From contig CAKSNY010000002.1 of NCBI GenBank assembly GCA_934476455.1, forward strand, positions 10,689 through 74,688: DNA of 64,000 bases. Direction: 5' to 3'. Of this stretch, positions 41,765 through 64,000 are shown in pieces. The position numbers and the translations under genes were made by a program. Positions within the stretch are counted from its first letter, which is position 1. The number at the start of each line of letters is the position of its first letter. This stretch comes from an uncultured Clostridia bacterium. Lineage in GTDB: Bacteria > Bacillota > Clostridia > UMGS1883. A model generated the notes under the pieces. That model was not told the DNA's origin, searched no databases, and was given only the letters and a program-made list of their open reading frames with translations.

Positions 41765-41776
41765 AAAGGAGCATTT

Positions 41777-44088: not shown

Positions 44089-45390
44089 ATGTTATTAGAA
44101 AACATCGGAAACGGTGGCACAGCTTGTTTTGGGGGTGTGGTTTTGGGAAAATACATAATTAACGGCAGAAAAAAACTGTCGGGTACGGCGCGCGTTCACG
44201 GTGCAAAGAACGCTGTTTTGCCGATTATGGCGGCTACCGTGCTTTCGGGGGATATGTGCCGCATATACGATTGCCCGAACCTTAGCGACGTAAGACATAC
44301 AATGCGCATTTTAGAGATGCTGGGGTGCAGCGTTAGCCTTGAAAACTCTGTTCTTACGATAAATTCAGCTTCGCTTTGTTCCTCCGACATCCCGGAGGAG
44401 CTTATGAGTGAAATGCGCAGCTCGATAATATTTTTGGGCGCGCTTACGTCGGCAATGGGCAGGGCGTGTCTTTCGGCGCCCGGCGGCTGCGAGCTTGGAA
44501 ACAGACCCATAGATTTGCACATAAAGGCTCTGCGCGAAATGGGTATGACAATAAAAGAGGAAAACGGATACCTTCTTTCCGACGCCTCCCAAATGCACAG
44601 CGCGGATATTCATTTAAGCTTTCCGAGCGTCGGTGCAACGGAAAACATTATTCTTTCCGCCGTAAAGCTGAGCGGTATTACAACAATAAGCAATGCCGCC
44701 AAAGAGCCGGAAATAGTAGACCTGTGCGACTTTTTAAATACAATGGGTGCGGATATAACGGGCGCTGGAACACCGATTATAACAATACACGGCAGGGCGT
44801 ATCTGCACGGCACGGATTATAAAATAATTCCCGACAGAATTGCCGCAGCTACGCTGATGTGTGCGGCGATGACGACAAAAAGCGAAATAGAGCTTGAAAA
44901 CGTGCGCAGCGACCATCTTGATGCCGTTGTATACGCTCTTCGGGAGAGCGGCGCGCGGATAGAATTTTTCCGTGACAGAATGTACATAGCGCCGCCGCGG
45001 AAAATTCTTCCGGTAAGCATAATAAAAACACAGGTGTACCCGGGCTTTCCGACAGACGCGCAATCGGTTGCAATGGCGTACCTTTGCGGTGCGTGCGGAA
45101 CAAGCGTAATTGTTGAAAACCTGTTTGACAGCCGCTATAAAATAATCCCCGAGCTTATAAAAATGGGCGCGGATATTTTACAGGACGGCAGGGTATGCGT
45201 TGTAAAAGGCACACCCATACACGGCGCACACGTGCGTGCAATGGATTTGCGCGGCGGCGCGGCGCTTACGATTGCGGCGCTCGGCGCGGACGGGGAAAGC
45301 ACGGTAGAAAATGTTCACTATATAGAGCGCGGGTATGACGGCTTTCACAAAACGCTTGCGCTTTTGGGTGCAGATATAAAAAAGGTGTGA
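44089..45390 (+). CDS. murA: UDP-N-acetylglucosamine 1-carboxyvinyltransferase
   Basis: RVHGAKNAVLPIMAAT ... active-site Cys region LSAPGGCELGNRPIDLH; ATG 44089 lacks an RBS, TTG 44143 (after GGGGGTG) may be the true start. Confidence 0.85.
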   Translation: MLLENIGNGGTACFGGVVLGKYIINGRKKLSGTARVHGAKNAVLPIMAATVLSGDMCRIYDCPNLSDVRHTMRILEMLGCSVSLENSVLTINSASLCSSDIPEELMSEMRSSIIFLGALTSAMGRACLSAPGGCELGNRPIDLHIKALREMGMTIKEENGYLLSDASQMHSADIHLSFPSVGATENIILSAVKLSGITTISNAAKEPEIVDLCDFLNTMGADITGAGTPIITIHGRAYLHGTDYKIIPDRIAAATLMCAAMTTKSEIELENVRSDHLDAVVYALRESGARIEFFRDRMYIAPPRKILPVSIIKTQVYPGFPTDAQSVAMAYLCGACGTSVIVENLFDSRYKIIPELIKMGADILQDGRVCVVKGTPIHGAHVRAMDLRGGAALTIAALGADGESTVENVHYIERGYDGFHKTLALLGADIKKV

Positions 45391-45395
45391 GAAAA

Positions 45396-46160
45396 ATGGC
45401 ACAAAAGAGATTTGTTCTTAAAAGAAAACAAAAAAAGCAGGTCGCGGCGCTGTCTGTAATTATACTGGCGGCGGCGATTGCGGCAATTATTATGCTTACG
45501 CCTGCATTTAACATACAGAAAATAACGGTTATGGGAAATTCCGTGCTTGATAAAAAAGACATTATACAAAGCTCGGGAATAGTTACGGGTGTAAACATTT
45601 TCGGCATAAGCACAAGGGAAGCCGAAAAAAACATTGAAGAAATGGGCTATGTTGACGGTGCAAAGGTAAAGCGCCGTCTGCCGGGAACGGTTGAAATTAC
45701 CATAGAGGAGGCGGTAGGCGTTGCAAAGCTTTCCGCCAAGGACGGGTTTCTTATAATTACTGCCGACGGCAGAGCCGTGGAGCTTATAACCGATACAAAA
45801 AAACAAAAGGATAAACAAAACGATAAACAAAACGTTCCTGTTATAAAAGGACTGAAAAATGTTAAATATAAGATAGGCAAAAAGATTACATCGGATGACA
45901 CGGAAAAGCTTGACACCCTTTTTACCTGCCTGCGTGAGTTTTCAAAAAATTCGGTAATATTTAATATGACACAGATTGATATATCGCAAAGCTCCGCCGT
46001 TAAATTTTTATATAACGGCGGCAAGCTTACGGTAAACTGCGGCTCTGTGGAAAAGCTTGATTATAAAATGGAGTGCTTTGCACCCATTTTGGAGCAGATA
46101 GGCGACAATCCCGAAGGATATGTTGACCTTGAAAGGCTTATTTACCGCAGCAAACAATAA
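45396..46160 (+). CDS. ftsQ: cell division protein FtsQ/DivIB (POTRA domain)
   Basis: single N-terminal TM then POTRA (IQKITVMGNSVLDKKDI) ; position in dcw cluster. Confidence 0.6.
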   Translation: MAQKRFVLKRKQKKQVAALSVIILAAAIAAIIMLTPAFNIQKITVMGNSVLDKKDIIQSSGIVTGVNIFGISTREAEKNIEEMGYVDGAKVKRRLPGTVEITIEEAVGVAKLSAKDGFLIITADGRAVELITDTKKQKDKQNDKQNVPVIKGLKNVKYKIGKKITSDDTEKLDTLFTCLREFSKNSVIFNMTQIDISQSSAVKFLYNGGKLTVNCGSVEKLDYKMECFAPILEQIGDNPEGYVDLERLIYRSKQ

Positions 46161-46187
46161 TAATTTGTAAACAAATAAAAATTTTTC

Positions 46188-46216
46188 TTGAAAGTGCGCC
46201 CGTTTCGGTGTATTAT
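46188..46216 (+). promoter_or_regulatory. ftsZ-proximal promoter (-35 TTGAAA, 17 nt, -10 TATTAT)
   Basis: hexamers at 46188-46193 and 46211-46216. Confidence 0.45.
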
Positions 46217-46269
46217 ATAATATATATCTTTAGATTTATAATTATATTACACATAGAGGAGGATTTCCG

Positions 46270-47325
46270 ATGAGAATGGAATATGCTGACGAGCTGGGCG
46301 CAGCTCAGAAAATTAAAGTCGTGGGTGTCGGCGGCGGCGGAAACAACGCCGTAAACCGAATGGTTGAGGCAGGAATTAAGGGCGTGGAGTTCATCGCCAT
46401 AAATACCGATAAACAGGCGCTTACAAAGAGCCAGGCAAGCCAGAAAATACAAATAGGCGATAAGCTGACAAAGGGTCAGGGTGCAGGCGGCAAGGCGGAA
46501 ATCGGCAAAAAAGCGGCAGAGGAAAGCCGCGGCGAGATTGAGCAGGTTTTAAAGGATGCCGATATGGTATTTGTAACGGCAGGTATGGGCGGCGGCACAG
46601 GTACGGGCGCTGCACCTATCGTTGCGGGTATTGCAAAGGAGCTTGGCGTGCTTACCGTGTCTATAGTTACAAAGCCGTTCGGCTTTGAAGGACGCCGCCG
46701 TATGATTCAGGCGGAGGAAGGCATAGAGCAGCTTAAGGGCAATGTTGATACGCTTGTTGTTATTCCCAATGACAGGCTGCTTGACATCAGCAACAACAAG
46801 ACAAGCCTGATAGACGCCTTTAAGGACGCGGACGAGGTTTTGCGCCAGGGCGTGCAGGGTATTTCCGATTTGATTGTCGGCGCAGGTCTTATAAATGTAG
46901 ACTTTGCCGACGTTACCACCGTTATGAAAGACGCAGGGCTTGCGCATATGGGTATCGGCCGTGCAAGCGGCGAAAACCGTGCGGAGGAGGCTGCGCGTAT
47001 GGCAATAGAAAGCGCGCTTCTTGAAACAACGATTGACGGCGCTACGGGCGTTCTTATAAATATTATCGGCGGTGCTAACCTTAATCTTCACGAAACGAAC
47101 GCAGCAGCACAGCTTATCGGTGATTGTGTCGATGAAGACGCAAACGTTATTTTCGGTGCGGCAATTGACGAAAGCCTTGAGGATGACATTATAATAACCG
47201 TTATCGCAACAGGGTTGGACTCCTCCAAAAAAGAAAAAAAGGATGATGCCTTTTTCGGGAATATATCTGCTGCTGATGATGATTTAGACGTTCCCAGCTT
47301 TTTGCAGAAAAACAATTTTGATTGA
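46270..47325 (+). CDS. ftsZ: cell division GTPase FtsZ
   Basis: [23 protein letters not shown] tubulin signature; AGAGGAGG RBS. Confidence 0.95.
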
Positions 47326-53527: not shown

Positions 53528-54940
53528 TCAAAGGGTTTCCACACGTATTGTCCCCGTCTTTCCGCTGCCTGCGGGCGACATACCCTCTGTCATAACTATT
53601 GTATCGCCGCTTGTAAGCCCCAAATGCTCCCGCGCGGCACGTGCGGCATGGTAAAACAGCACGTCGCCCGATGTGAACTGTTCGCACATAACGGGTACAA
53701 CCCCCCAAGAAAGAGCAAGCTTATACCAAACCTTTTTGTCGGGCGTCATACCGATAATATCCATCGGCGCACGGAAGCGCGATACCATACGAACTGTTTT
53801 CCCGGAAAGAGAGCATGCAACAATTCCCTTTGCGGATATATCTATCGCCATACCGCACGTAGCGTGGGAAACGGCGTCCACCTGGTTTGTTATGGGAAAT
53901 TCCGCATTTCTGAAGCGTTTGGCAAAGTTTATATGCCGCTCGGTTTCTTCCACAATTTCGCTCATTGTGCGCACCGTTTCAACGGGGTATTTGCCCGCAG
54001 CGGATTCACCCGAAAGCATAACCGCGCTTGTGCCGTCATACACGGCGTTTGCAACGTCGGATATTTCCGCACGTGTCGGGCGGGGGTTGTGAATCATAGA
54101 TTCCAGCATTTCGGTTGCGGTTATAACGCGCTTGCCCAAAAGGCGGCATTTTGTAATAATGTATTTTTGCAGCGCCGGAAGCTCTGTAAACGGAACCTCT
54201 ACACCCAAATCGCCGCGGCCTATCATTATTCCGTCGCACTCGGTGCATATATCGTCTATATTATCAATTCCGGCACGGTTTTCTATTTTTGCTATTATGG
54301 CAATGTCGCCGCCGCCGTTTTCGCGGAGAAAGCCTTTAAGGTCAAGAATATCCTGTTTGGTGGAAACAAACGAAGCCGCAACGTAATCCACCCCGTTTTC
54401 TATACCGAAAAGAAGGTCACACTTGTCCTGCTCACTTAAATATACCTGGTGCAAAAGCTTATTCGGAAAGCTCATACTTTTTCTGTCGGAAAGCTCGCCC
54501 CCGGCAATAACGGTGCATACGATGTCCTCGCCGGTAATTTCCTTTACCTCGAAAATAACAAGCCCGTTATTTACAAGCACCCTGTCGCCCTTTAAAAGAT
54601 CCTTGCAAAGCCCTTTATAATTTACGGAAACGATTTCTTTGTTTCCCACACATTCACGCGTGGTAAAGGTGAAGGTGTCGCCGTCCTCCAGGCGGATTTT
54701 CCCGTTTTCAAAGGTACCTATTCTGTATTCGGGACCCTTGGTATCAAGCATTATGGCAATCGGCATATCAAGCGTTTCGCGCACCTTTTTTATCATATCA
54801 AACTTCTTTTTATGCTCCTCGTGCGAGCCGTGTGAAAAATTAAGCCGTGCAACGTTAAGCCCCGCAAGACACATTTTTGTGAACACCTTTTCAGAGCTGC
54901 TTGCAGGCCCTATTGTACATACTATTTTTGTTTTGCGCAT
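53528..54940 (-). CDS. pyk: pyruvate kinase
   Basis: MRKTKIVCTIGPAS N-terminus and conserved PK motifs; start set at 54940 behind GAGAGGGTG RBS. Confidence 0.9.
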   Translation of the reverse strand: MRKTKIVCTIGPASSSEKVFTKMCLAGLNVARLNFSHGSHEEHKKKFDMIKKVRETLDMPIAIMLDTKGPEYRIGTFENGKIRLEDGDTFTFTTRECVGNKEIVSVNYKGLCKDLLKGDRVLVNNGLVIFEVKEITGEDIVCTVIAGGELSDRKSMSFPNKLLHQVYLSEQDKCDLLFGIENGVDYVAASFVSTKQDILDLKGFLRENGGGDIAIIAKIENRAGIDNIDDICTECDGIMIGRGDLGVEVPFTELPALQKYIITKCRLLGKRVITATEMLESMIHNPRPTRAEISDVANAVYDGTSAVMLSGESAAGKYPVETVRTMSEIVEETERHINFAKRFRNAEFPITNQVDAVSHATCGMAIDISAKGIVACSLSGKTVRMVSRFRAPMDIIGMTPDKKVWYKLALSWGVVPVMCEQFTSGDVLFYHAARAAREHLGLTSGDTIVMTEGMSPAGSGKTGTIRVETL

Positions 54941-55091
54941 ATGCTGACACCCTCTCATTACAAAATCTTTCTTATTATATATTATATATGCAAAAAAACA
55001 TTTGTCAAGATTTTGCTTGCGGCAATTTACGTATTTTTATCACAGGGGGCATTATTTTATGTATGAAAATAATCACAACAAAAAAACACTA

Positions 55092-55120
55092 TTGACAAAG
55101 CGCGAAAAATGTTTTATTAT
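55092..55120 (+). promoter_or_regulatory. promoter of leader ORF / BCAA-related operon (-35 TTGACA, 17 nt, -10 TATTAT)
   Basis: hexamers at 55092-55097 and 55115-55120. Confidence 0.5.
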
Positions 55121-55151
55121 AGTAGCATACTTTGTGAAAGGAAAAAAGACG

Positions 55152-55265
55152 ATGAACACTGTATTTTATGTGATTAACATAATTGTCATTAACGCTATTA
55201 TTCTAATTGCCGTTACAGCAAAAAAGAATAGCGCTGTTTGTCGTGTGTGCAGAAAGGCGGCATAA
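55152..55265 (+). CDS. 37-codon Ile/Val-rich leader peptide (candidate attenuation leader) or small membrane peptide
   Basis: MNTVFYVINIIVINAIILIAVTAKKNSAVCRVCRKAA: 7 Ile + 6 Val in 37 residues; AAGGA RBS 9 nt upstream; followed 25 nt later by strong terminator. Confidence 0.5.
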   Translation: MNTVFYVINIIVINAIILIAVTAKKNSAVCRVCRKAA

Positions 55266-55289
55266 TCCGTTTTTTTGATATAAGGTTAT

Positions 55290-55325
55290 AACGCCTGCGG
55301 CAATTAGCGCCGCAGGCGTTTTTTA
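55290..55325 (+). terminator. intrinsic terminator/attenuator between leader ORF and operon
   Basis: perfect 12-bp stem aacgcctgcggc / gccgcaggcgtt with 7-nt loop, followed by tttttt. Confidence 0.65.
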
Positions 55326-55349
55326 ATAATTATGAAAGGATGAGCATAA

Positions 55350-56723
55350 ATGCGAAAAATCGGAATTTCGGACATTACACTGGCAACGGCAGGTGCAAGA
55401 GAGCTAAGCTTTAAGGAAAAGGTAGAAACGGCAAAGCAGCTAAGCCGTGCCGAAACGGATTGTATAGAGATGATGCCGCTTACAGGCTCAAAGGCAGACA
55501 TTATCTTTTATCATACTGTGTCCGGACTTACCGACAGGGAAATATGCTGCCCGATTTCTACGGAGGAGGGGCAGACACAGAAAGCTGCGGAGGCGCTTAA
55601 AAATGCGAAAAACGCTTCTGTAAATGTTTGCGTGCCGTCCTCCACCGTGCAGATGGAATATATAGGAAAGAAAAAGCCCGCGGCAATGCTTGCCGCTATG
55701 GAAAGTACCCTCGCAGAGGCGGCAGCGTGCTTTAAAACCACAGAGGTTACTTTTACGGACGCAACACGTGCCGATATAGGGTTTTTAACGCAGATGACAA
55801 AGAAGGCTGCGGAGGCGGGCGCATCGCGCATAACCGTGTGCGATGATGCGGGCGATATGCTGCCGAAAGAATTTAAAGAGCTTGTGAAGCTTGTTAAAGA
55901 GGCTGCGGGAAAAACGCCGGTAGGGGTGAAATGCTCTAACGAGTGCCATATGGCGGCAGCCTTTATGGCAGAGGCGATAGAAGAAGGTGCAGACTATGTA
56001 AAGACAACGGCGCTCGGGAAAGAGGCGGTTTCCCTTAGAACGGCGGCGGGGCTTATAAGCTCTAAGGGGAGCGCACTGGACTGCTTTTGCGGCGTTAATA
56101 TGACGGTGCTTTCGGATTGCAGCGACAAGATATTGCAGGCTGCCGAGGGTAAGGTAACCCCCAAAGCCTCTTTGAACGCGGGAAGCTTTTTTACCGGCAG
56201 TGAGGATATAACAGCCGTTTCACAGGCGGTAAAGGATTTGGGCTATGACCTTAGCGGCAACGATATTGCGGCGGTATACAGCGAATTTTTAAAGACCGCC
56301 GAAAAGAAGAAGGTTTCGCTGCGCGACCTTGACGCGATAGTTGCCGGCTGTGCAATGCAGGCGCCGCCGACCTTCAGCGTACAAAGCTTTGTTGTTACAA
56401 ACGGAAATCTTATAACACCGATGGCAAATATGACCATTGTAAAAAACGGCGAGGCGCTTTCCGGCTGCAGCGTGGGCGACGGACCGATTGACGCGGCGTT
56501 TCGCGCTATTGAGCAGATTGTAGGGCACCATACGGAACTGGACGATTTTCAGGTACAAGCCGTAACGCGCGGGCGCGAGGCGCTCGGCTCGGCAATTGTT
56601 AAGCTGCGTTCGGGCGGTGTTTTGTATTCGGGCAAGGGCATATCAACCGATATAGTGGAAGCGAGCATAGCTGCGTACATAAGCGCACTTAACAAAATAT
56701 ATTACGAGGAGGAAACAAAATGA
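55350..56723 (+). CDS. LeuA/homocitrate-synthase-family protein with degenerate catalytic barrel and intact C-terminal LeuA regulatory (dimerisation) domain
   Basis: C-terminal GDGPIDAAFRAIEQI...GKGISTDIVEASIAAYISALNKI matches LeuA allosteric domain; catalytic motifs replaced: LRDGEQ -> LATAGARE, HxHNDxG -> KCSNECH. Confidence 0.65.
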   Translation: MRKIGISDITLATAGARELSFKEKVETAKQLSRAETDCIEMMPLTGSKADIIFYHTVSGLTDREICCPISTEEGQTQKAAEALKNAKNASVNVCVPSSTVQMEYIGKKKPAAMLAAMESTLAEAAACFKTTEVTFTDATRADIGFLTQMTKKAAEAGASRITVCDDAGDMLPKEFKELVKLVKEAAGKTPVGVKCSNECHMAAAFMAEAIEEGADYVKTTALGKEAVSLRTAAGLISSKGSALDCFCGVNMTVLSDCSDKILQAAEGKVTPKASLNAGSFFTGSEDITAVSQAVKDLGYDLSGNDIAAVYSEFLKTAEKKKVSLRDLDAIVAGCAMQAPPTFSVQSFVVTNGNLITPMANMTIVKNGEALSGCSVGDGPIDAAFRAIEQIVGHHTELDDFQVQAVTRGREALGSAIVKLRSGGVLYSGKGISTDIVEASIAAYISALNKIYYEEETK

Positions 56724-59179
56724 AGCTTTCCTTTTCAACAAACTATCAAAAAACAGACGTAATGCAGGCGCTTGCCGCCGCGAACGAATACGGGTTTCAG
56801 GGGGTGGAAATTCACGATATAAGCGAAACCGAGAATTATGAAATTTCCGACGTGCGGCAAAAAACGGCACAGTACCGCGTGCATATATCGTGCATAGATA
56901 CCGCGGCGGATATATCGAAAGATTTTGACAAGGCATACGCGGAAGCGGTCTGTGCGATAAATAAGGCGGCAGAGCTGCACTGCCCGTACGTAAGGCTGCA
57001 TGCAGAGAGTGAGGATAATGTTTCAGCCTTTTTGCAAAAAACGCTTCCCGATGCCGAAAAAAATAAAATTGTGCTTCTGATAGAATCGTGCGGGGTATAC
57101 GGCGACACGTCAAAGCTGAGAGGGCTTTTGGAGCATTTCGCGTCGGACAGTTTAGGCGCTTTGTGGGATTTTTACCACCCGTACAGAAGCGCGGGCGAAA
57201 CGCCGGACGTCACCGTTAAAAATCTGGGTGCGTACATAAAGCACGTTCATATAAAAGATTCGGATGAAACGGGCGCGTATACCCTTATAGGCGAGGGCAC
57301 AGCCCCTATGGAGGATTTTTTCGGCGCGCTGAGGTCTGTTAATTACGACGGCTATATATCCCTTGAATGGAACGAAAAATGGGCAGACGAGGTAGGCGCC
57401 TGCGAGATAGCGTTTCCGCATTTTGTAAGCTTTATGAATAGGTTTGACGAAACGGCAACCGCAAAGCGCAGCCTTTATCAAAACAAGTCGCAAACGGGTA
57501 AATTTATATGGAAAAAGGACGCGCTTATCGAAAAAACCTTTTCACAGGTGCTGGATTGCTGCGTAGAGGAATTTCCCAACCAAACGGCGATAAGATATAC
57601 CACGCTTGACTATACGAGAACATACAGCCAATTCCGCGATGATGTGGATGAGTTTGCACGGGCGCTTGTTTCCGTAGGCGTTACGGCGGGCAGCCACGTT
57701 GCGGTATGGGCAACAAACGTGCCGCAGTGGTACATTGCGTTTTGGGCGGTTACGAAAATCGGCGCGGTGCTTGTCAGTATGAACACAGCCTACAAAATAC
57801 ACGAGGCAGAGTATTTGTTAAAGCAGTCGGACACGCACACGCTTATTATGACAGAGGGGTATCGGGACTCTAACTACAGAGAAATAATGCAAAAGCTTTG
57901 CCCCGAAACGGAAAACACACCTAAAAACGCCCCGCTTCACGCAAAGAGACTGCCGTTTTTAAGAAATATAATTACAGTAGGTTTTGAAATGCACGGCGCA
58001 ATGACATGGGACGAGGCGCGCGCCGGAGCCGCCGAAACACCGATAGAGGAAATTCACCGCCGCGCCGCTGCGGTAAGCGTGCACAGCGTTTGCAATATGC
58101 AGTATACAAGCGGTACGACGGGCTTTCCGAAGGGCGTAATGCTTACGCATTACAACATAGTAAACAACGGTAAATGTATAGGCGACAGAATGGATCTTTC
58201 CACAGCAGACAGAATGATGATACAGGTGCCGATGTTCCACTGTTTCGGAATGGTGCTGGCGATGACAGCCGCGATGACACATTCGGCAACAATTTTGCCG
58301 CTGCCGTACTTTTCGCCGCGTTCGGCACTTTCGTGCATTGAACACGAGCATATTACGTGCTTCCACGGCGTACCTACGATGTTTATTGCACTTTTGGAAA
58401 ATCCGGATTTTGAAAAGACGGACTTTTCATATATGCGCACCGGCATAATGGCGGGGTCGCCCTGCCCGGTGTCCGTAATGCAGGATGTTTTAAATAAAAT
58501 GAATATGCGCGAGATAACCATTGTTTACGGACAGACAGAGGCTTCGCCGGGCTGCACGATGAGCAGCACTGACGATTCCATCGAAACGCGCGTGGGAACG
58601 GTGGGAAGGGCACTTCCCGAGATAGAATGTAAAATAACAGACCCCGAAACGGGCGAGGAAATGCCCGTAGGCGAGGTTGGCGAGTTTGTGGCGCGCGGCT
58701 ACAACATTATGAAAGGCTACTACAAAATGCCGCACGAAACCGCTGCCGCAATAGATAAGGACGGCTGGCTGCATACCGGCGATTTGGCGCTTAAAACGGC
58801 GGACGGAAACTTCTGCATAACAGGGCGCCTTAAGGATATGATAATACGCGGGGGAGAAAATATTTACCCCAAGGAAATAGAGGAATTTATCTACACGCAC
58901 CCCTCTGTAAAGGACGTACAGGTTATCGGCGTGCCGGACGAGCAATACGGCGAGGAAATAATGGCATGCGTTATACTTAAAGAGGGCACCGCCCTTACCG
59001 CTGACGAGCTGAAGGGCTATATTGCGGAAAATATGGCAAAGCACAAGGTGCCGCGGTATATAGATTTTGTAGAGGAGTTCCCCATGAATGTAGCGGGCAA
59101 AATTCTTAAATATAAAATGCGCGAGGACGCAATAGAGCGCCTCGGCATAAAAAAAGCAGAAGGAATAACAGCGCAATAA
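56720..59179 (+). CDS. fusion protein: N-terminal xylose-isomerase-like TIM-barrel (sugar-phosphate isomerase/epimerase family) + C-terminal AMP-forming acyl-CoA synthetase
   Basis: N-terminal ~245 aa with WDFYHP...HVHIKD...SLEWNE motifs; C-terminal AMP-binding motifs YTSGTTGFPKGV, GYGQTE, WLHTGDLA, GRLKDMIIRGGENIYP; ATGA-coupled to upstream gene; strong GAGGAGG RBS. Confidence 0.75.
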   Translation: MKLSFSTNYQKTDVMQALAAANEYGFQGVEIHDISETENYEISDVRQKTAQYRVHISCIDTAADISKDFDKAYAEAVCAINKAAELHCPYVRLHAESEDNVSAFLQKTLPDAEKNKIVLLIESCGVYGDTSKLRGLLEHFASDSLGALWDFYHPYRSAGETPDVTVKNLGAYIKHVHIKDSDETGAYTLIGEGTAPMEDFFGALRSVNYDGYISLEWNEKWADEVGACEIAFPHFVSFMNRFDETATAKRSLYQNKSQTGKFIWKKDALIEKTFSQVLDCCVEEFPNQTAIRYTTLDYTRTYSQFRDDVDEFARALVSVGVTAGSHVAVWATNVPQWYIAFWAVTKIGAVLVSMNTAYKIHEAEYLLKQSDTHTLIMTEGYRDSNYREIMQKLCPETENTPKNAPLHAKRLPFLRNIITVGFEMHGAMTWDEARAGAAETPIEEIHRRAAAVSVHSVCNMQYTSGTTGFPKGVMLTHYNIVNNGKCIGDRMDLSTADRMMIQVPMFHCFGMVLAMTAAMTHSATILPLPYFSPRSALSCIEHEHITCFHGVPTMFIALLENPDFEKTDFSYMRTGIMAGSPCPVSVMQDVLNKMNMREITIVYGQTEASPGCTMSSTDDSIETRVGTVGRALPEIECKITDPETGEEMPVGEVGEFVARGYNIMKGYYKMPHETAAAIDKDGWLHTGDLALKTADGNFCITGRLKDMIIRGGENIYPKEIEEFIYTHPSVKDVQVIGVPDEQYGEEIMACVILKEGTALTADELKGYIAENMAKHKVPRYIDFVEEFPMNVAGKILKYKMREDAIERLGIKKAEGITAQ

Positions 59180-59200
59180 AGCTTTGAAAGGATGGTTTAG

Positions 59201-60268
59201 ATGCTTAACATTAAGGTAGAAAAAACAAAAAATCCTAAAACAAAACCGGCAAAGGGTGAAAAGCTGGGCTTCGGTAAAATTTTTACAGACCATATGTTTG
59301 AAATGGATTATACCGAGGGAAAGGGATGGCACGATGCAAGAATAGTGCCGTTTCACAATCTGGAGCTTTCGCCCGCAGCTATGGTTTTTCATTACGGACA
59401 GGAGATGTTCGAGGGGCTTAAGGCATACCGCGGGGCAGACGGAAAAGCGCGGCTTTTCCGCCCGGATATGAACGCAAAGCGTACTACAAACACAAACAAG
59501 CGCCTTTGCATACCGTATCTCCCCGAGGAGGATTTTGTGGAGGCTGTAAAGGCGGTTGTTAAGGTTGATGAGGACTGGATTCCGACAGAGGAGGGGACCT
59601 CGCTTTATATAAGACCGTTTATTATAGCTACGGACGAATTTTTGGGCGTTGCACCCGCGCAGACATACAAATTTATGGTAATTCTTTCACCGAGCGGCGC
59701 GTACTACGAAAGCGGGCTTGCACCGGTGGGCATCTGGGTAGAGGATGAATATGTGCGTGCGGTGCGCGGCGGAATGGGCTTTGCAAAAACGGGCGGTAAC
59801 TACGCCGCAAGCCTGATTGCGCAGGTGAAAGCACACGATGACGGATATTCGCAGGTTTTGTGGCTTGACGGTGTGGAGCAGAAATACATCGAAGAAGTGG
59901 GCGCAATGAACATCTTTTTCAGGATTGACGGAAAGGTTGTTACACCGAAGCTTAACGGAAGCATCCTGCCGGGGGTTACGCGTGACAGTGTGCTTCATCT
60001 TTGCAGGGCAATGGGCTTTGAAACAGAGGAGCGCCGCATAAGCATTGACGAGCTTATTGCCGCGCAAAAGGAAGGAAAGCTTGAGGAATGTTTCGGCACG
60101 GGAACGGCGGCAGTTATTTCACCTGTGGGCAAGCTGCGCTACAAAGATGACGTTATGACGATAAGCGGCAATAAAATAGGCGAGCTTACGCAAAAGCTTT
60201 ACGATAAATTAACTGGTATTCAATGGGGAAAATGTGAGGATGAGTTCGGATGGAGCGTAGTTCTTTAA
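59201..60268 (+). CDS. ilvE: branched-chain amino acid aminotransferase
   Basis: 355 aa; FGKIFTDHMF, GQEMFEGLKAYR, PLP-fold class IV motifs. Confidence 0.85.
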   Translation: MLNIKVEKTKNPKTKPAKGEKLGFGKIFTDHMFEMDYTEGKGWHDARIVPFHNLELSPAAMVFHYGQEMFEGLKAYRGADGKARLFRPDMNAKRTTNTNKRLCIPYLPEEDFVEAVKAVVKVDEDWIPTEEGTSLYIRPFIIATDEFLGVAPAQTYKFMVILSPSGAYYESGLAPVGIWVEDEYVRAVRGGMGFAKTGGNYAASLIAQVKAHDDGYSQVLWLDGVEQKYIEEVGAMNIFFRIDGKVVTPKLNGSILPGVTRDSVLHLCRAMGFETEERRISIDELIAAQKEGKLEECFGTGTAAVISPVGKLRYKDDVMTISGNKIGELTQKLYDKLTGIQWGKCEDEFGWSVVL

Positions 60269-60939
60269 AAAGAATAAATGTTTTCTGCGGGCATTACGGC
60301 AGCGGAAAAACAAACATCGCGGTAAATTACGCGCTGATGCTTAAAAAGCGCTTTGAAAGGGTTGCCATAGCAGACCTTGACATTGTAAACCCGTATTTCA
60401 GAACAAAGGACGCGGCGGATATTCTTAAGCAAAACAGTATCAGGGTTATATCATCGCCGTATGCAAACTCAAACGTAGATACGCCCGCACTTCCGGCAGA
60501 GATTTACTCCGTCACGGACGAGGGCGACCTGCACGCCGTTATAGACGTCGGCGGTGACGACCGCGGGGCACTTGCCCTCGGTCGATTTAAGGAAAACATA
60601 GAGAGAGCGGGCGGCTGCAATCTGTTTTTTGTTATAAATATGTACAGACCCTTAACAAAAACACCCGAGGAAGCCTTTTGTGTGCTGAAAGAAATCGAAG
60701 CGGCGTGCCGTATGCGCTTTGATTATATAATAAACAACTCAAACCTGGGCGAGGCAACCACCGCGCACGACATAGAACGTTCGTTTGAATATGCGCGTGC
60801 GGTGGAAAGCCTTACGGGGCTTAAAACGGCATTTACAACAGTTAAAACAGAGCTTTACCCGAAAATAAAAGGCAAAGCGGAAAATATTATACCAATTAAG
60901 CTTTTTGTAAGACAAAGCTGGGAAGAAAGGAATGAGTAA
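60250..60939 (+). CDS. P-loop NTPase of unknown function (Walker A GHYGSGKT, DVGGDD switch-like motif)
   Basis: Walker A near N-terminus, hhhhDxxG motif VIDVGGDD; 19-nt overlap with ilvE; embedded between ilvE and oxidoreductase genes. Confidence 0.5.
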   Translation: MERSSLKRINVFCGHYGSGKTNIAVNYALMLKKRFERVAIADLDIVNPYFRTKDAADILKQNSIRVISSPYANSNVDTPALPAEIYSVTDEGDLHAVIDVGGDDRGALALGRFKENIERAGGCNLFFVINMYRPLTKTPEEAFCVLKEIEAACRMRFDYIINNSNLGEATTAHDIERSFEYARAVESLTGLKTAFTTVKTELYPKIKGKAENIIPIKLFVRQSWEERNE

Positions 60940-60940
60940 T

Positions 60941-61144
60941 ATGGCAAAGGTAACGTTTGACAGCGAGCGCTGCAAGGGCTGCGGCTTGTGCGTGCACGCC
61001 TGTCCGAAAAATATTGTGGCATTGGGAAACACGCTTAACGCACGCGGGTATCACAGCGCAGAGGTAACGCAGCCCGAAAAATGCGTAGGGTGTGCGTTCT
61101 GCGCATCGATGTGTCCCGATTGCGTAATAACGGTTGAAAGATAA
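60941..61144 (+). CDS. 2-oxoacid:ferredoxin oxidoreductase delta subunit (2x[4Fe-4S] ferredoxin)
   Basis: two CxxCxxCxxxCP motifs (CKGCGLCVHACP, CVGCAFCASMCP), 68 aa. Confidence 0.7.
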   Translation: MAKVTFDSERCKGCGLCVHACPKNIVALGNTLNARGYHSAEVTQPEKCVGCAFCASMCPDCVITVER

Positions 61145-61161
61145 GGAAAGGATTGAAAAAT

Positions 61162-62223
61162 ATGGCTGAAAAAGTTTTGATGAAAGGAAACGAAGCTTTG
61201 GCAGAGGCTGCAATAATGGCAGGCTGCCGCCACTACTTCGGATATCCTATCACCCCGCAGACAGAGGTTGCGGCGTATATGGCAAAAAGAATGCCTAAAA
61301 TCGGCGGAACATTTCTTCAGGCGGAAAGCGAAATTGCCGCAATAAATATGGTTATCGGTGTGGCTTCGACGGGGAAAAGGGCGATGACGTCAAGCTCCAG
61401 CCCCGGCATAAGCCTTAAAAGCGAAGGTATATCGTATCTTGCGGGGTGCGATTTGCCCGCGCTTATTGTAAACGTTCAGCGCGGCGGTCCCGGGCTCGGC
61501 GGAATACAGCCGTCGCAGTCGGACTATTTCCAGGCAACGCGCGGCGCCGGGCATGGAGATTTTCACCTGATAGTGCTTGCACCGGCAAGCGTGCAGGAAA
61601 TGGTAGAGCTTGTTTTCCGCGGTTTTGACCTGGGCGAAAAGTACCGTATGCCCGTTATGCTTTTGTCAGACGGCACAATGGGGCAGATGATGGAACCCGT
61701 AGTGCTTGAACAAAAGGAAATCGTACAATATGATAAATCGTGGGCGCTTACGGGAACGGACGGCGTGCGCAAGCCAAACATTGTAAATTCGCTTTTCTTA
61801 AAGCCCGAAGAACTGGAAAAATTCAACTTTGCGCGGTACGAGCGTTACAAAAAAATCGAAGAAACCGAAACCATGTACGAGGAATATAAAATGGAGGACG
61901 CGGAAATTTGCGTCGTAGCGTTCGGCGTGGCGTCACGCGTTTCAAAAAATGCGATAGACGAGGCGCGTGCCATGGGCATAAAGGTAGGTATGATAAGACC
62001 CATCACCCTTTGGCCTTTCCCGAAAAAAGCTCTTTTGAAGGCTTCGGAAAAAGTTAAGAAATTTATTTCGGTAGAGCTTTCAATGGGGCAAATGACAGAG
62101 GATATTTCACTGGCTGTAAAATGCCGCCGCGAGGTGCTTCTTTGCAACCGCACCGGCGGAATGATACCCACAACGGCAGAGGTTGTGGCAAAAATAAAAG
62201 AAGCTTGCGGAGGTGCAGAGTAA
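61162..62223 (+). CDS. 2-oxoacid:ferredoxin oxidoreductase alpha subunit
   Basis: KorA/VorA/PorA-like N-terminus (LMKGNEALAEAAIMAGCRHYFGYPITPQTE). Confidence 0.8.
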   Translation: MAEKVLMKGNEALAEAAIMAGCRHYFGYPITPQTEVAAYMAKRMPKIGGTFLQAESEIAAINMVIGVASTGKRAMTSSSSPGISLKSEGISYLAGCDLPALIVNVQRGGPGLGGIQPSQSDYFQATRGAGHGDFHLIVLAPASVQEMVELVFRGFDLGEKYRMPVMLLSDGTMGQMMEPVVLEQKEIVQYDKSWALTGTDGVRKPNIVNSLFLKPEELEKFNFARYERYKKIEETETMYEEYKMEDAEICVVAFGVASRVSKNAIDEARAMGIKVGMIRPITLWPFPKKALLKASEKVKKFISVELSMGQMTEDISLAVKCRREVLLCNRTGGMIPTTAEVVAKIKEACGGAE

Positions 62224-62966
62224 TGGTAGTTTTTGAAAAGCCTAAGGCGCTTACGGACGCGCCGCTTCATTACTGCCCGGGCTGTACGCACGGCATTATA
62301 CACAGGCTTGTTGCACAGGCAATAGACGAGCTTGGCATTGCGGGGCGTACGATAGGCGTAGCGTCGGTAGGGTGCAGCGTGTTTGCATATAATTATTTTA
62401 ACTGTGATATGGTACAGGCAGCGCACGGGCGCGCACCTGCGGTGGCAACGGGCGTAAAGCGCAGCGACCCCGAAAAAAACATCGTCTTTACATATCAGGG
62501 CGACGGCGACCTTGCCGCAATAGGAACAGCGGAAACCGTACACAGTGCGGCACGCGGCGAAAACATAACGGTAATATTTGTAAACAATGCCATTTACGGT
62601 ATGACGGGCGGGCAGATGGCACCCACAACGCTGCCGGGGCAGAAAACGCAGACATCGCCGTACGGGCGTGACGTCAGTACAGTGGGCTATCCCGTAAAGG
62701 TATGCGAACTGCTTTCAAATGTGGACGGTGCGGCGTATCTCGAACGCGTGGCGGTCAACAATCCGGCAAACGTTAAAAAGGCAAAAGCGGCAATTAAAAA
62801 GGCGTTTTCAAACCAGCTTGAAAACAAGGGCTTTTCTCTTGTAGAGGTGCTTTCAACCTGCCCCACAAACTGGGGATTGGAACCGCAGAAGGCGCTTAAC
62901 TGGCTGGAAGAAAATATGATTCCGTATTACCCGTTGGGTGTTTACAAGGATAAATATGCAAAGTGA
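62223..62966 (+). CDS. 2-oxoacid:ferredoxin oxidoreductase beta subunit (TPP-binding)
   Basis: YCPGCTHG and TPP motif GDGD...N; start ATG overlaps alpha stop (TAATG). Confidence 0.8.
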   Translation: MVVFEKPKALTDAPLHYCPGCTHGIIHRLVAQAIDELGIAGRTIGVASVGCSVFAYNYFNCDMVQAAHGRAPAVATGVKRSDPEKNIVFTYQGDGDLAAIGTAETVHSAARGENITVIFVNNAIYGMTGGQMAPTTLPGQKTQTSPYGRDVSTVGYPVKVCELLSNVDGAAYLERVAVNNPANVKKAKAAIKKAFSNQLENKGFSLVEVLSTCPTNWGLEPQKALNWLEENMIPYYPLGVYKDKYAK

Positions 62967-62976
62967 GGTGCGCAGA

Positions 62977-63519
62977 ATGAATAAAGAAATACTTATAGCG
63001 GGCTTCGGCGGTCAGGGGATTTTGTTTTCGGGGAAATTTCTTGCTTACGAAGGTCTTATAGAAAACCGCAATGTAAGCTGGCTGCCGTCTTACGGACCGG
63101 AAATGCGCGGCGGCACCGCAAATTGCAGCATTATTTTAAGCGACGGCGCTATAGGCTCGCCGATTGTTACAAATCCTGACATACTTATAGCGATGAATTT
63201 ACCCTCGCTTGACAAGTACGAAGCGGAAACAAAGCCGGGCGGCGAAATATTTGCGGAAAGCTCGCTCATTGAAAGAAAGCTCAGCCGCACAGACGTTTCG
63301 GGCTATTACATTCCCGCAACGCATCTTGCCGACGAAAACGGGCTTTCGGGTCTTGCAAATATGATTATGCTGGGATATATGATTAAGAAAAGCGGCGTAA
63401 TTCCGACAGAAAATATAGACGCCGCACTCTCAAAGGTTGTGCCGCCGTCAAAGGCACACCTTATCGAAAAGAACAGGCAGGCAATAGATATAGGCTATAA
63501 CTACGGAGAGGAGAAGTAA
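62977..63519 (+). CDS. 2-oxoacid:ferredoxin oxidoreductase gamma subunit
   Basis: ILIAGFGGQG N-terminus; GTGAGGTG RBS. Confidence 0.8.
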   Translation: MNKEILIAGFGGQGILFSGKFLAYEGLIENRNVSWLPSYGPEMRGGTANCSIILSDGAIGSPIVTNPDILIAMNLPSLDKYEAETKPGGEIFAESSLIERKLSRTDVSGYYIPATHLADENGLSGLANMIMLGYMIKKSGVIPTENIDAALSKVVPPSKAHLIEKNRQAIDIGYNYGEEK

Positions 63520-63525
63520 GAAAAA

Positions 63526-64000
63526 TGAACGAGCAGCTAAAAGATATAGGTATGCGGCTTATGTCCCTGCGCGAGGACTGCGAATATACTATAGAGCAAA
63601 TGGCACAAAAGCTGAACCTTGATACGGAGGCGTACAAGGCTTACGAGGCGGGCAACCGTGATTTCTCTTTCAGCTTTGTATATAACTGTGCAAACATATT
63701 GGGCGTGGATGTGCTTGATATAATAAGCGGCGAAGCCCCCACACTTTCAAAGGCGTGTATGGTGGAATCGGGCAAGGGCTACAGCGTGAAGCGCGAGCAT
63801 GAGTATGATTACCGACATCTTGCATATACCTTCAGAAACAAAAAGGCAGAGCCGTTTTTGGTAACGGTAAACCCCGATGACGAAACACCCGTTCTTCACG
63901 GACACGAAGGGCAGGAGTTTAACTATGTTTTGTCCGGAGAGATGACTATATACATAGGCGATATTTCATATGAAATGTCTAAGGGTGACAGCATCTATTT
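63526..64000 (+). CDS. XRE-family HTH + cupin-domain transcriptional regulator (3' end beyond window)
   Basis: N-terminal HTH (MRLMSLREDCEYTIEQMAQKLNL), C-terminal cupin motif (HGHEGQEFNYVLSGEMTIYIGD). Confidence 0.65.

Follow-up and report, generated by a model that had tools for sequence, protein, structure and literature searches.

A putative leader-peptide-controlled operon for converting branched short-chain fatty acids to branched-chain amino acids in an uncultured Clostridia bacterium

Reductive carboxylation of isovalerate, isobutyrate, and 2-methylbutyrate to leucine, valine, and isoleucine, respectively, was reportedly worked out by Allison, Bryant, and Robinson in rumen bacteria and methanogens. 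The acid passes through its acyl-CoA to the 2-oxoacid, with reduced ferredoxin and CO2, and from there to the amino acid. To our knowledge, the classical studies established the physiology and an enzyme activity and did not identify a bacterial gene cluster. The same chemistry has been invoked for Methanobrevibacter ruminantium (PMC2812497). In Clostridia, catabolic oxidoreductase clusters pair with a phosphotransacylase and kinase, or with ADP-forming ligases, and AMP-forming ligases are read as anabolic (PMC13285125); a proposal for Bacteroides likewise takes an oxidoreductase (IOR) adjoining an AMP-forming ligase to imply an anabolic role (PMC13285125).

The attenuators of the enterobacterial ilvGMEDA, ilvBN, leu, trp, his, and thr operons place a short ORF rich in cognate codons and a 1:2 hairpin ahead of a biosynthetic operon, and an antiterminator competes with an intrinsic terminator. 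Clostridia normally control amino acid operons by T-boxes, which turn genes on in response to uncharged cognate tRNA.

Here we describe a locus that shares features with each of these systems. It lies in the window, a 64,000-nucleotide stretch of contig CAKSNY010000002.1, and is probably a salvage operon, switched on by starvation, whose enzymes convert branched short-chain fatty acids to branched-chain amino acids, the enzyme substrates and reaction direction being predicted. Set against the classical rumen work, it would offer a conserved cluster with substrate-dedicated ligases, sensor-like partners, a P-loop NTPase, and amino-acid-specific riboregulation. Literature searches found no published description of the cluster. 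An earlier note on this DNA, made from the sequence alone, had stated that the gene combination was not known to be described as a defined system.

Operon layout and its conservation

Sequence, ORF calls, and Pfam/NCBIfam matches place a promoter, a leader ORF, a terminator, and eight tightly packed genes on the + strand at 55092-63519. The gene junctions between 55350 and 63519 overlap or leave gaps of at most 21 nt. The genes, and the partial one that follows them, are:

55350..56723, +: LeuA-like protein; Pfam HMGL-like (degenerate TIM barrel) and LeuA_dimer
56720..59179, +: ligase 1, TIM barrel::AMP-forming acyl-CoA ligase; proposed isovalerate-CoA ligase
59201..60268, +: IlvE, type II branched-chain aminotransferase; NF009897 506 bits vs 307, TIGR01123 416 vs 250
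60250..60939, +: orphan SIMIBI-class P-loop NTPase; weak CbiA/ParA matches
60932..61144, +: oxidoreductase delta, 2x[4Fe-4S] ferredoxin; Fer4 family matches
61153..62223, +: oxidoreductase alpha, POR_N and PFOR_II; NF005507 'VorB' 539 bits vs 399
62223..62966, +: oxidoreductase beta, TPP_enzyme_C; Pfam/NCBIfam
62977..63519, +: oxidoreductase gamma, POR domain; Pfam/NCBIfam
63525..64000, +: HTH_31 and Cupin_2 protein (Pfam), cut by the window end; partner of ligase 2

The earlier note had named the promoter, leader, terminator, LeuA-like protein, TIM::ligase fusion, IlvE, P-loop NTPase, and oxidoreductase, all of which are present at the coordinates it gave, and its delta, alpha, beta, gamma order is borne out by the domain matches. 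The operon does not end at 63519 as that note had it, since the HTH-cupin gene begins at 63525 and a second ligase follows beyond the window. On L214, a contig of the same species, the HTH-cupin gene (184 aa) is followed by a 561-aa AMP-forming ligase, ligase 2, and then by convergent genes. Gene calls on L214 also suggest that delta may start at ATG 60941 (67 aa) and that alpha probably starts at ATG 61162 (353 aa). Conservation of gene order, a check the earlier note had proposed, was followed over a comparison set of 88 related loci, and two linkages are kept: the LeuA-like gene lies immediately 5' of a TIM domain or TIM::ligase gene in nearly every locus extending far enough, and the P-loop gene directly precedes the delta gene wherever both are found.

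T-boxes in related loci and a probable leader-peptide attenuator in the window

The relatives carry bona fide T-box riboswitches (Rfam RF00230), above the gathering score in 17/17 sampled loci (95-123 bits), with leucine, isoleucine, and valine specifiers. A Leu specifier (CUC/CUG) has the LeuA-like gene first downstream in 37 cases, while an MbcS-like ligase comes first after an Ile specifier (AUC; 16 cases) or a Val specifier (GUC/GUA; 5 cases), with no exceptions among called specifiers, other calls being unassigned. In most related loci the LeuA-like/TIM::ligase pair is downstream of a Leu-specifier T-box, and the ligase paralogs under Ile and Val T-boxes are followed by the P-loop, oxidoreductase, and IlvE genes; in L088, three successive T-boxes, with Leu, Ile, and Val specifiers, precede the three ligases and the oxidoreductase. 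Because T-boxes respond to uncharged tRNA, the cluster is wired to raise leucine, isoleucine, and valine supply. The genes regulated here are acyl-CoA ligases and an oxidoreductase, in contrast to the canonical ilv/leu genes, tRNA synthetases, and transporters under T-box control in Firmicutes.

No T-box was found within the window, where the following elements precede the LeuA-like gene:

55092..55120, +: sigma-70-type promoter, TTGACA-17 nt-TATTAT; 11/12 consensus match
55137..55142, +: Shine-Dalgarno-like AAAGGA of the leader, read from the sequence; 9 nt to ATG
55152..55265, +: leader ORF of 37 codons (ORF call); 7 Ile, 6 Val, 1 Leu
55193..55199, +: segment 1, CGCUAUU (codons Ala-Ile-Ile), 5' strand of the 1:2 hairpin; pairs with 55227-55233
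55227..55233, +: segment 2, AAUAGCG, 3' strand of the 1:2 hairpin; pairs with 55193-55199
55238..55245, +: UUGUCGUG motif, proposed antiterminator strand; pairs with 55296-55303
55290..55326, +: intrinsic terminator; stem 55290-55301/55309-55320, loop 55302-55308, then a T-run

The promoter ranks second best among 35 promoter-like sites in the 53-64 kb region, and TTGACA-type promoters stand at the equivalent relative position in loci L001, L081, L209, and L210. The leader peptide encoded at 55152-55265, with the ATG position corrected to 55152, is MNTVFYVINIIVINAIILIAVTAKKNSAVCRVCRKAA; the L001 leader has AAAGGAG at the place equivalent to the Shine-Dalgarno-like motif. Among 20 terminator-like sites, the one with its stem at 55290-55320 (12 bp, 9 of them G-C) stands out as much the strongest. 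Across eight leaders 97.9% of its cells are paired and 9/12 pairs show compensatory changes, which 0/500 shuffles reached; the 1:2 hairpin is paired in 89% of cells, with a compensatory change in two pairs.

No Rfam leader family matches the window leader (Thr_leader, 21.9 bits vs 55). Homologous Ile-rich leaders nevertheless occur in L001, L081, L209, L210, and L027, and the L005 leader is Leu-rich instead. The earlier note's description of an Ile/Val leader stands as to composition, and the five homologous leaders identify the regulatory codons as mainly Ile. With a single Leu codon, control by leucine is not evident in the window, although the LeuA-like/TIM::ligase pair of most relatives answers to leucine. 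The attenuator is kept in at least eight divergent loci, with covariation in the terminator. In this window's lineage, to judge by sequence, an Ile-codon leader-peptide attenuator visibly replaces the T-box that relatives have at the orthologous position.

How the attenuator may switch turns on UUGUCGUG. Its UUGUCGU core is invariant in 8/8 aligned leaders and lies 3' of the leader stop codon in L209 and L005, which argues that it is constrained at the RNA level. In register, its pairing with 55296-55303 covers 93.7% of cells vs 24-58% in slid registers. A shuffle control gave 88/500, non-significant, and an invariant antiterminator strand cannot show two-sided covariation; minimum-free-energy folding of the leader kept the terminator every time. 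We regard antitermination via UUGUCGUG as plausible. Transcription would begin at the 55092-55120 promoter and enter a classical ribosome-mediated attenuator. When isoleucine, and probably valine too, is plentiful, the ribosome would reach the leader stop and cover or isolate UUGUCGUG, the 55290-55320 terminator would form, and transcription would end. When charged tRNA-Ile is scarce, the ribosome would stall at Ile codons, including those of segment 1, freeing UUGUCGUG to pair with the 3' half of the terminator's 5' arm and allowing RNA polymerase to read through. The arrangement resembles that of the enterobacterial attenuators, and differs in occurring in Clostridia and in using an invariant UUGUCGU strand as the proposed antiterminator.

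A more mundane account is that the small ORF arose by chance or encodes a hydrophobic micropeptide, the hairpin being a mere terminator or stabilizer and control lying elsewhere, for example with the HTH-cupin protein. Short ORFs rich in Ile, Val, and Leu do resemble membrane peptides; a different small hydrophobic ORF, about 60 aa long, lies upstream in L004, L010, and L041, a palindromic operator takes the place of the leader in Acutalibacteraceae-type loci, and the antiterminator is not statistically proven. We nonetheless consider this account unlikely, as the leader occupies the place of the relatives' T-box and keeps its length (186-207 nt), promoter-ORF-terminator order, Ile bias with few Leu codons, and 1:2 hairpin among loci with LeuA-like proteins of only 40-65% identity. 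Moreover, the invariant UUGUCGU matches the terminator arm and falls always within about 20 nt of the stop codon, inside or outside the ORF, and the L005 leader switches to Leu codons.

Ligases and their putative sensor partners

Ligase 1 joins a xylose-isomerase-like TIM barrel (about 56720-57514; AP_endonuc_2, 94 bits) to an AMP-forming acyl-CoA ligase of the ANL type (57515-59179; AMP-binding, 299 bits). Conservation of the putative metal ligands in the barrel is only 70-95%. The nearest NCBIfam model to ligase 1 is PRK12583 (680 bits vs a cut-off of 832), its ligase domain keeps 65-80% identity across phyla, and its relatives lie under Leu T-boxes. Ligase 2, the cupin-fused ligases, and the ligases under Ile and Val T-boxes best match the MbcS model NF047394, at 411-440 bits against an equivalog cut-off of 850. 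S. aureus MbcS, a methylbutyryl-CoA synthetase, acts preferentially on 2-methylbutyrate and isobutyrate and has hardly any activity with isovalerate (PMC10026030), which explains the existence of a separate Leu-linked ligase. Ligase 1 would accordingly be the enzyme activating isovalerate, and ligase 2 the one activating 2-methylbutyrate and isobutyrate.

Each ligase has a companion. The LeuA-like protein has the two-part fold of 2-isopropylmalate synthase (LeuA) and citramalate synthase (CimA) with their C-terminal allosteric domain, and its AF2 model matches LeuA structures, but it lacks RDGEQ and HxH, the motifs for catalysis and metal binding, scores far below the NCBIfam LeuA cut-off (231 bits vs 532), and is paired with an acyl-CoA ligase rather than leuBCD. 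The LeuA_dimer regulatory domain is its best-conserved part. Over its whole length the HTH-cupin protein shares 34% identity with the N-terminal domain of a Val-specifier T-box ligase of L088, and across loci it is fused to, or adjoins, its cognate ligase. We propose that the catalytically dead LeuA-like protein is a leucine sensor and partner of ligase 1; together with the HTH-cupin protein at ligase 2, it may act as an end-product sensor gating the ATP-consuming first step.

Given the likeness to MbcS, which feeds FabH with 2-methylbutyryl- and isobutyryl-CoA (PMC10026030), the ligases might instead serve to supply branched acyl-CoA primers for membrane branched-chain fatty acids, amino acid synthesis not being their purpose. 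This seems improbable to us: T-boxes and leader peptides respond to the charging of tRNA and not to the state of the lipids, the oxidoreductase and IlvE co-transcribed with the ligases are needless for making primers from free acids, and the Leu-linked partner bears a LeuA regulatory domain. Unlike MbcS, its relatives in these loci have an HTH-cupin domain as a fusion or as a separate partner and are linked to amino acid synthesis. As an additional role, they could also supply branched acyl-CoA primers to lipid synthesis.

The oxidoreductase and the direction of the pathway

The oxidoreductase has the delta-alpha-beta-gamma domain set of archaeal VOR and KorAB/OorDABC, and its beta subunit is 75-89% identical in related loci. 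The earlier note had called it VOR-type, and alpha does pass the NCBI 'VorB' model. Against the model of characterized archaeal VORs, however, alpha reaches only 81 bits vs 646, and delta and beta score best, below threshold, with 2-oxoglutarate-type models, so that branched-chain specificity rests on the NCBI family name and genomic context. By these scores the enzyme belongs to a Kor/Oor-like lineage and is not an ortholog of the characterized archaeal VORs. It also differs from other four-subunit oxidoreductases in always being accompanied by the P-loop NTPase, which has an SRP54/FtsY/MipZ-like fold and over 8000 close homologs, including one that is joined to the ferredoxin (delta) subunit in a single protein. 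There is no conserved Cys in this NTPase family, whose members may assist the oxidoreductase.

The same domain set could run in reverse. IlvE can work in either direction, as can 2-oxoacid:ferredoxin oxidoreductases, and C. sporogenes and C. difficile use them to deaminate branched-chain amino acids and oxidize the 2-oxoacids to acyl-CoAs, and on to branched fatty acids, in oxidative Stickland-type catabolism (PMC13285125). A catabolic operon of this kind is very improbable here. Induction by starvation, through Leu, Ile, and Val T-boxes in relatives and the Ile leader in the window, would be senseless for amino acids being consumed; genes for a phosphotransacylase, kinase, or ADP-forming ligase are absent from the cluster; and every ligase is AMP-forming, favoring acyl-CoA synthesis (PMC13285125). 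Starvation-induced control of AMP-forming ligases points to synthesis, not breakdown, and the anabolic interpretation put forward in the earlier note gains support from the relatives' T-boxes, the MbcS-like ligases, and the conserved attenuator.

Under the salvage reading, the oxidoreductase, assisted by the P-loop NTPase, would use reduced ferredoxin and CO2 to carboxylate the acyl-CoAs to 2-oxoacids, which IlvE would transaminate to leucine, isoleucine, and valine. The operon thereby offers candidate genes for a pathway known only as physiology since the 1960s.

The operon and its relatives

A single transcription unit on the + strand spans 55092-64000. The earlier note, made by inspection of the DNA, had described a promoter, a leader ORF, a terminator and a set of genes for making branched-chain amino acids from branched-chain fatty acids, and all of these are present in the window. 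The start it gave, 55092, holds, but the end at 63519 has to be moved outward, since an HTH_31+Cupin_2 gene begins at 63525 and is followed in L214, a contig of the same species from a Hadza gut metagenome, by a 561-aa AMP ligase (ligase 2) and then by convergent genes. Eight genes follow the terminator, their junctions either overlapping or leaving gaps of no more than 21 nt, and the terminator itself is by far the strongest such site within 53-64 kb.

Features of the operon
55092-55120, + strand: promoter TTGACA-17-TATTAT, matching 11 of 12 consensus positions
9 nt before the ATG at 55152, + strand: ribosome-binding site AAAGGA, read from the sequence
55152-55265, + strand: leader ORF of 37 codons, MNTVFYVINIIVINAIILIAVTAKKNSAVCRVCRKAA, with 7 Ile, 6 Val and 1 Leu
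55290-55326, + strand: terminator hairpin, 12-bp stem (9 G-C pairs) with a T-run, between the leader ORF and the first structural gene
55350-56723, + strand: gene 1, after the terminator, HMGL-like plus LeuA_dimer protein (Pfam), 457 aa
56720-59179, + strand: gene 2, xylose-isomerase-like TIM barrel fused to an AMP-forming acyl-CoA ligase (ligase 1), 819 aa, nearest NCBIfam PRK12583
+ strand: gene 3, IlvE type II, above equivalog cut-offs
60250-60939, + strand: gene 4, P-loop protein, 229 aa
+ strand: genes 5-8, delta, alpha, beta and gamma subunits of a 2-oxoacid:ferredoxin oxidoreductase
From 63525 (63525-64000 inside the window), + strand: HTH_31+Cupin_2 gene

The neighbouring genes are of a housekeeping kind: a divergent pyruvate kinase, FtsH and the dcw cell-division cluster (39369-47325, + strand; Mur ligase, MraY, FtsW, MurG, MurA-like, FtsQ and FtsZ), which shows that the operon's location is part of the core chromosome. 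A 12/12 promoter, TTGACA-16-TATAAT (54981-55008, - strand), stands back to back with that of the operon and is aimed at the pyruvate kinase gene at 53528-54958. Elsewhere in the window are a class A RNase P RNA (5401-5767, + strand, 271 bits) and a tRNA gene (33920-33993, - strand).

Conservation of the gene order was surveyed by scanning for the LeuA-like family in one genome per species, which gave 80 loci, mostly from gut and rumen MAGs of Oscillospiraceae, Acutalibacteraceae and Lachnospiraceae, with Lentisphaeria, Synergistaceae and Eggerthellaceae also represented. A TIM domain or TIM::ligase gene directly follows the LeuA-like gene in nearly every locus that extends far enough, and the ligase half is 65-80% identical to that of the window. 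About half of the loci have the P-loop and oxidoreductase genes, often with IlvE, in that operon or no more than 10 kb away, and the P-loop gene precedes the delta subunit gene wherever both were located. Some loci vary the theme. For instance, in L210 (2093-4093) two neighbouring genes separately encode the TIM-barrel domain (207 aa) and the ligase (598 aa), while in L002, L003 and L087 an Amidohydro_2 family gene abuts the LeuA-like gene directly upstream, itself preceded by an additional AMP-binding ligase of 578-583 aa; these two genes may be an extension of the cluster in those genomes.

T-boxes, leader peptides and other control

The control regions of the related loci are the most telling guide to what the cluster does. 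A T-box core motif lies 80-140 nt upstream of the LeuA-like gene in about 45 of the 80 loci; all 17 loci sampled carry T-boxes above the Rfam gathering score (RF00230, 95-123 bits), and in divergent arrangements Rfam confirmed T-boxes on both strands. Specifier codons were read from the cmscan alignments and by a rule that was checked against these. The pair of LeuA-like and TIM::ligase genes is preceded by a Leu specifier (CUC or CUG) in 37 of 37 assigned cases, Ile (AUC) T-boxes stand before a second ligase paralog, which shares about 25% identity with ligase 1, in 16, and Val (GUC or GUA) T-boxes before a third in five; T-boxes without a gene assignment under the ORF rule carry the same Leu, Ile and Val specifier codons, one of them being CUA. 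The Ile-linked and Val-linked ligases fall mostly into distinct clades of a neighbour-joining tree. One locus, L088, reads in order T-box(Leu), LeuA-like, TIM::ligase, T-box(Ile), cupin::ligase, T-box(Val), HTH-cupin::ligase, P-loop and oxidoreductase. Such series of Leu, Ile and Val T-boxes, each before its own acyl-CoA ligase, are seen at L088:9900-19300 and also in L025, L029, L032 and L062, where the last T-box leads into the P-loop and oxidoreductase genes. Since uncharged cognate tRNA switches T-box genes on, the control of the cluster is built to increase Leu, Ile and Val supply.

The window itself has no T-box match at the gathering score, nor any at E<=10 within 54950-55400. Other Rfam elements were also discarded for its leader, the Thr_leader and PyrR matches falling far under threshold. 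What it shares instead with ribosome-mediated leader-peptide attenuators is a Shine-Dalgarno sequence and short ORF, a cluster of regulatory codons and an intrinsic terminator. An equivalent ORF with its Shine-Dalgarno sequence is present in L001, L081, L209, L210 and L027, homologous leaders carry 5-10 Ile codons each, and they occur in T-box-free loci of the window's sub-lineage.

Leader peptides at related loci
L001: ...FEIIIISVVILPVI...
L081: MYSFGFAAVISVIIAIIILDIIGLNKNSAFCRI
L210: MALNFSAVALILAIIAIILANIIGFHENSAFCRV
L209: MNLAFSALALILAINAIIILPNKGLR
L027: ...HIIIGNAIIILPLIII...
L005, Leu-rich (6 Leu in 23 codons): MYFNAKSNLNLLGATLLLCEYIG

Across eight leaders the distance from Shine-Dalgarno sequence to T-run is 186-207 nt without exception, and the terminator helix is 97.9% paired, with compensatory changes at 9 of 12 pairs, a level reached by none of 500 shuffles. 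A 1:2 hairpin in which the Ile codons CGCUAUU pair with AAUAGCG is 89% paired, with two compensatory pairs. The motif UUGUCGU is invariant in the same alignment; most loci have it inside the ORF, but L209 and L005 carry it beyond the stop codon, and Cys-Arg in the leader tail is always encoded by UGU CGU. These two features together indicate that the motif is constrained as RNA, and for the same reasons we rejected the idea that the leader tail, NSA(V/F)CR, is a functional peptide.

The invariant motif lies within UUGUCGUG (55238-55245), which pairs with the 3' half of the terminator 5' arm (55296-55303) when the RNA is folded as far as the terminator loop and its upstream part is masked, in imitation of a stalled ribosome. 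This pairing is 93.7% intact across the eight leaders, against 24-58% in slid registers, and all substitutions in the arm are transitions compatible with pairing to the invariant strand. It forms only in RNA truncated before the terminator 3' arm; under minimum-free-energy folding of the full leader, plain or ribosome-masked, the terminator wins every time and no antiterminator forms. RNAduplex comparison with shuffled motifs gave p = 0.03-0.24 in a subset of leaders, and 88 of 500 shuffles in the control match the real pairing, which is not significant. Because one strand never varies, so that two-sided covariation is absent, and because the shuffle control is non-significant, we regard UUGUCGUG as a plausible, not a proven, antiterminator strand. 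A scan of metagenome contigs for AATAGCGNNNNTTGTCGT returned at least 120 matches, and those listed were all chance occurrences without a LeuA-like gene close by.

No locus has its leader stop codon more than about 20 nt from UUGUCGU, and a ribosome finishing the leader would cover the motif or part it from the terminator arm. Blocking of an antiterminator by a ribosome at the leader's end is classical attenuation logic. The window leader is predicted to sense Ile, perhaps Val, and not Leu, for which it has a single codon, although the first two genes of the operon are Leu-linked in relatives. As pure speculation, UUGUCG could act as an RNA polymerase pause signal, since it fits G-10/Y-1/G+1. 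A weak hairpin at 55251-55276, AGAAAGGCGG CAUAAU CCGUUUUUUU, is followed by seven U and holds the leader stop codon in its loop, and L001 has an analogous one (GAGC GUAA GCUC UUUUU). The window hairpin could function either as a pause site or as a second terminator that a ribosome terminating there would melt.

Further kinds of control occur elsewhere in the family. Loci of the Acutalibacteraceae type, with the same ten-gene order, have neither T-box nor leader. What they share is a conserved, perfect palindrome, ACTTATAGTGCATAAGT; in L017, L042, L049, L051, L040 and L043 it immediately follows the -10 box, some 60-90 nt ahead of the LeuA-like gene, with a second conserved box, GTTGCAGTATACGAT, further upstream. 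The palindrome is probably a protein operator, perhaps one bound by the HTH-cupin protein. With a T-box, a leader or a palindrome depending on the locus, the same operon is under at least three kinds of control. In L004, L010 and L041 a different conserved small ORF, Ile-rich, hydrophobic and about 40-65 aa long (...SVLLC...), lies 120-300 nt upstream of the LeuA-like gene. A conserved hairpin (CAGACACUG...CAGUGUCUG) precedes this ORF and a terminator follows it; the ORF may represent either another leader type or a micropeptide.

Enzymes and their accessory proteins

Ligase 1 scores 298.7 bits for AMP-binding and 75 bits for AMP-binding_C, and its core motifs, YTSGTTGFPKG, GWLHTGD and GRLKDMIIRGGENIYP, reach 95% conservation or more at most positions among 66 sequences. 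Its TIM domain is recognised as AP_endonuc_2 (Pfam, 94.4 bits against a cut-off of 31.1) and its closest solved structures are uncharacterised or distant. Across the 66 fusions this domain evolves much faster than the ligase half, and the candidate metal ligands of the window barrel (Glu, Asp, His and Glu) are far less well conserved, at only 70-95%. The aminotransferase exceeds both equivalog cut-offs, with IlvE at 505.7 bits against 307 for NF009897 and 415.6 against 250 for TIGR01123. For ligase 2 and both cupin-fused ligases the best family is NCBIfam MbcS (NF047394, 411-440 bits), ligase 2 reaching 417 bits, under the equivalog cut-off of 850. Purified S. aureus MbcS has a KM below 10 uM for 2-methylbutyrate and isobutyrate and hardly uses isovalerate, with a KM above 500 uM (PMC10026030). 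This preference fits the Ile and Val T-boxes of the MbcS-like ligases, and the poor use of isovalerate makes sense of a separate TIM::ligase class tied to Leu, whose substrate is presumably isovalerate.

In many loci MbcS-like ligases (755-806 aa; for example L088:14322-16589 and L088:16965-19259) carry an HTH_31+Cupin_2 module fused at the N-terminus, whereas in window-type operons the module is a separate gene immediately 5' of the ligase. Over its whole length the stand-alone HTH-cupin shares 34% identity with the N-terminal domain found in the fused ligases. A ligase fused to a domain of DNA-binding type is, to our knowledge, unusual. Fusion and adjacency thus give each ligase an accessory module, the LeuA-like protein and TIM barrel for the Leu channel and the HTH-cupin for Ile and Val, and we infer that these modules serve as end-product sensors.

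The LeuA-like protein has the HMGL-like barrel (83.7 bits) and LeuA_dimer domain (108.2 bits; Pfam) of 2-isopropylmalate synthase, but differs from LeuA in a best NCBIfam LeuA score of 230.8 bits, below the equivalog cut-off of 532, and in the loss of the metal-binding and catalytic motifs: the place of R-D-G-E-Q, near the N-terminus, reads DITLATAGA in the window (family consensus DITLRE) and that of H-x-H reads KCSNE (consensus ECSN). The C-terminal regulatory domain is the best-conserved part in an alignment of 30 sequences. A sequence search of this domain against the PDB gave no meaningful match, but a fold search did find LeuA; the AlphaFold (AF2) model (pLDDT 86) superposes on LeuA barrels with TM 0.90 and, at full length, on M. 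tuberculosis LeuA, including its leucine-bound form. Homologs run to thousands. Among the best 120 homolog clusters (457-484 aa, 43-65% identity to the window protein, with one same-species cluster at 99%) most are nameless and the others "hypothetical", with "2-isopropylmalate synthase" appearing once. On its motifs and fold we therefore class the protein as a pseudoenzyme of a large family, in keeping with the degenerate LeuA-like protein of the earlier note.

The oxidoreductase was said to be of VOR type, and this holds in part. Its subunits share the domains of archaeal VOR in the same delta-alpha-beta-gamma set (delta 2x[4Fe-4S], alpha POR_N+PFOR_II, beta TPP_enzyme_C, gamma POR), and alpha scores 539.4 bits against a cut-off of 399 for NF005507, a family to which NCBI gives the name "VorB". 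Orthology to the characterised archaeal enzymes does not hold: alpha reaches 81 bits against 646 for their model, NF006232, and the best scores of delta and beta, below threshold, are with 2-oxoglutarate-type models. By these profile scores the enzyme belongs to a Kor/Oor-like lineage. It is context that points to branched substrates and the CO2-fixing direction, in that Ile and Val T-boxes drive the same units in relatives.

The P-loop protein is one of an abundant orphan SIMIBI family, with more than 8000 close homologs. Its motif GHYGSGKT is invariant at H-Y-x-S-G-K-T and at least 90% conserved at both Gly; Pfam scores fall slightly under cut-offs, and Foldseek matches SRP54, FtsY and MipZ (E ~1e-6, TM ~0.5), a generic SIMIBI fold. 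It thus shares Walker A and fold with SIMIBI P-loop NTPases such as MinD, ParA, Mrp and NifH, but differs from the NifH- and Mrp-type Fe-S proteins in having no cluster-binding cysteines: a search for such ligands among 44 homologs found no conserved cysteine. A role as a NifH-like ATP-driven electron pump was rejected on this count and on the generic fold. One homolog, P0189 (297 aa), combines the NTPase and the 2x[4Fe-4S] ferredoxin (delta) subunit in a single protein, a fusion that links the two.

A probable route from branched acids to amino acids

Did such a cluster evolve to break down branched-chain amino acids or to make them? Catabolic clostridial oxidoreductase clusters adjoin phosphotransacylase and kinase genes, or ADP-forming ligases, while AMP-forming ligases beside such oxidoreductases have been argued to mean amino acid synthesis, as in methanogens (PMC13285125, 2026). 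Here all ligases are AMP-forming, and phosphotransacylase, kinase and ADP-forming ligase are absent from the cluster. Together with control that senses starvation, this favours the route from acid through acyl-CoA and 2-oxoacid to amino acid, which has been assumed for Ile in Methanobrevibacter ruminantium (PMC2812497). The biosynthetic reading of the earlier note is accordingly the best supported, by the Leu, Ile and Val T-boxes of relatives as well as by the uniformly AMP-forming ligases.

The chemistry of the pathway is of a known kind; the route has been known for some 60 years from labelling studies, although we found no defined bacterial gene set for it in the literature. Nor did literature searches return an earlier description of the system at gene level, in which three ligases, each dedicated and with a sensor-like partner, are combined with a P-loop accessory protein and with control by T-box or leader peptide interchangeably.

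A more specific proposal, which we offer tentatively and consider somewhat improbable, is a three-channel salvage system in which each ligase has its own end-product sensor and the oxidoreductase a P-loop helper. The LeuA-derived pseudoenzyme would dock on the TIM-barrel domain of the isovalerate ligase, and HTH-cupin modules would serve the 2-methylbutyrate and isobutyrate ligases, so that the sensors would stop the spending of ATP once Leu, Ile or Val suffices. The P-loop NTPase would be an obligatory, nucleotide-dependent helper of the delta subunit, for assembly or for the CO2-fixing direction. If true, well-known enzyme families would gain two new kinds of partner, regulatory or accessory, and bacterial branched-chain amino acid synthesis from volatile fatty acids would be defined at gene level for the first time.

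Branched volatile fatty acids are required or used by cellulolytic rumen bacteria and by many anaerobes of the gut, their use in ruminant feeding is well established, and levels of branched-chain fatty and amino acids in the human gut are studied in relation to metabolic health. To this setting the cluster brings candidate genes for every step of the pathway and a prediction of the acid handled by each ligase, while its Leu, Ile and Val T-boxes and Ile attenuator are built-in reporters that make the direction of flux testable. The LeuA-descended pseudoenzyme, the cupin-ligase fusions and an abundant orphan NTPase tied to a ferredoxin oxidoreductase are leads for mechanistic work, and metagenomes could be scored for the organisms that produce branched acids and those that re-use them.
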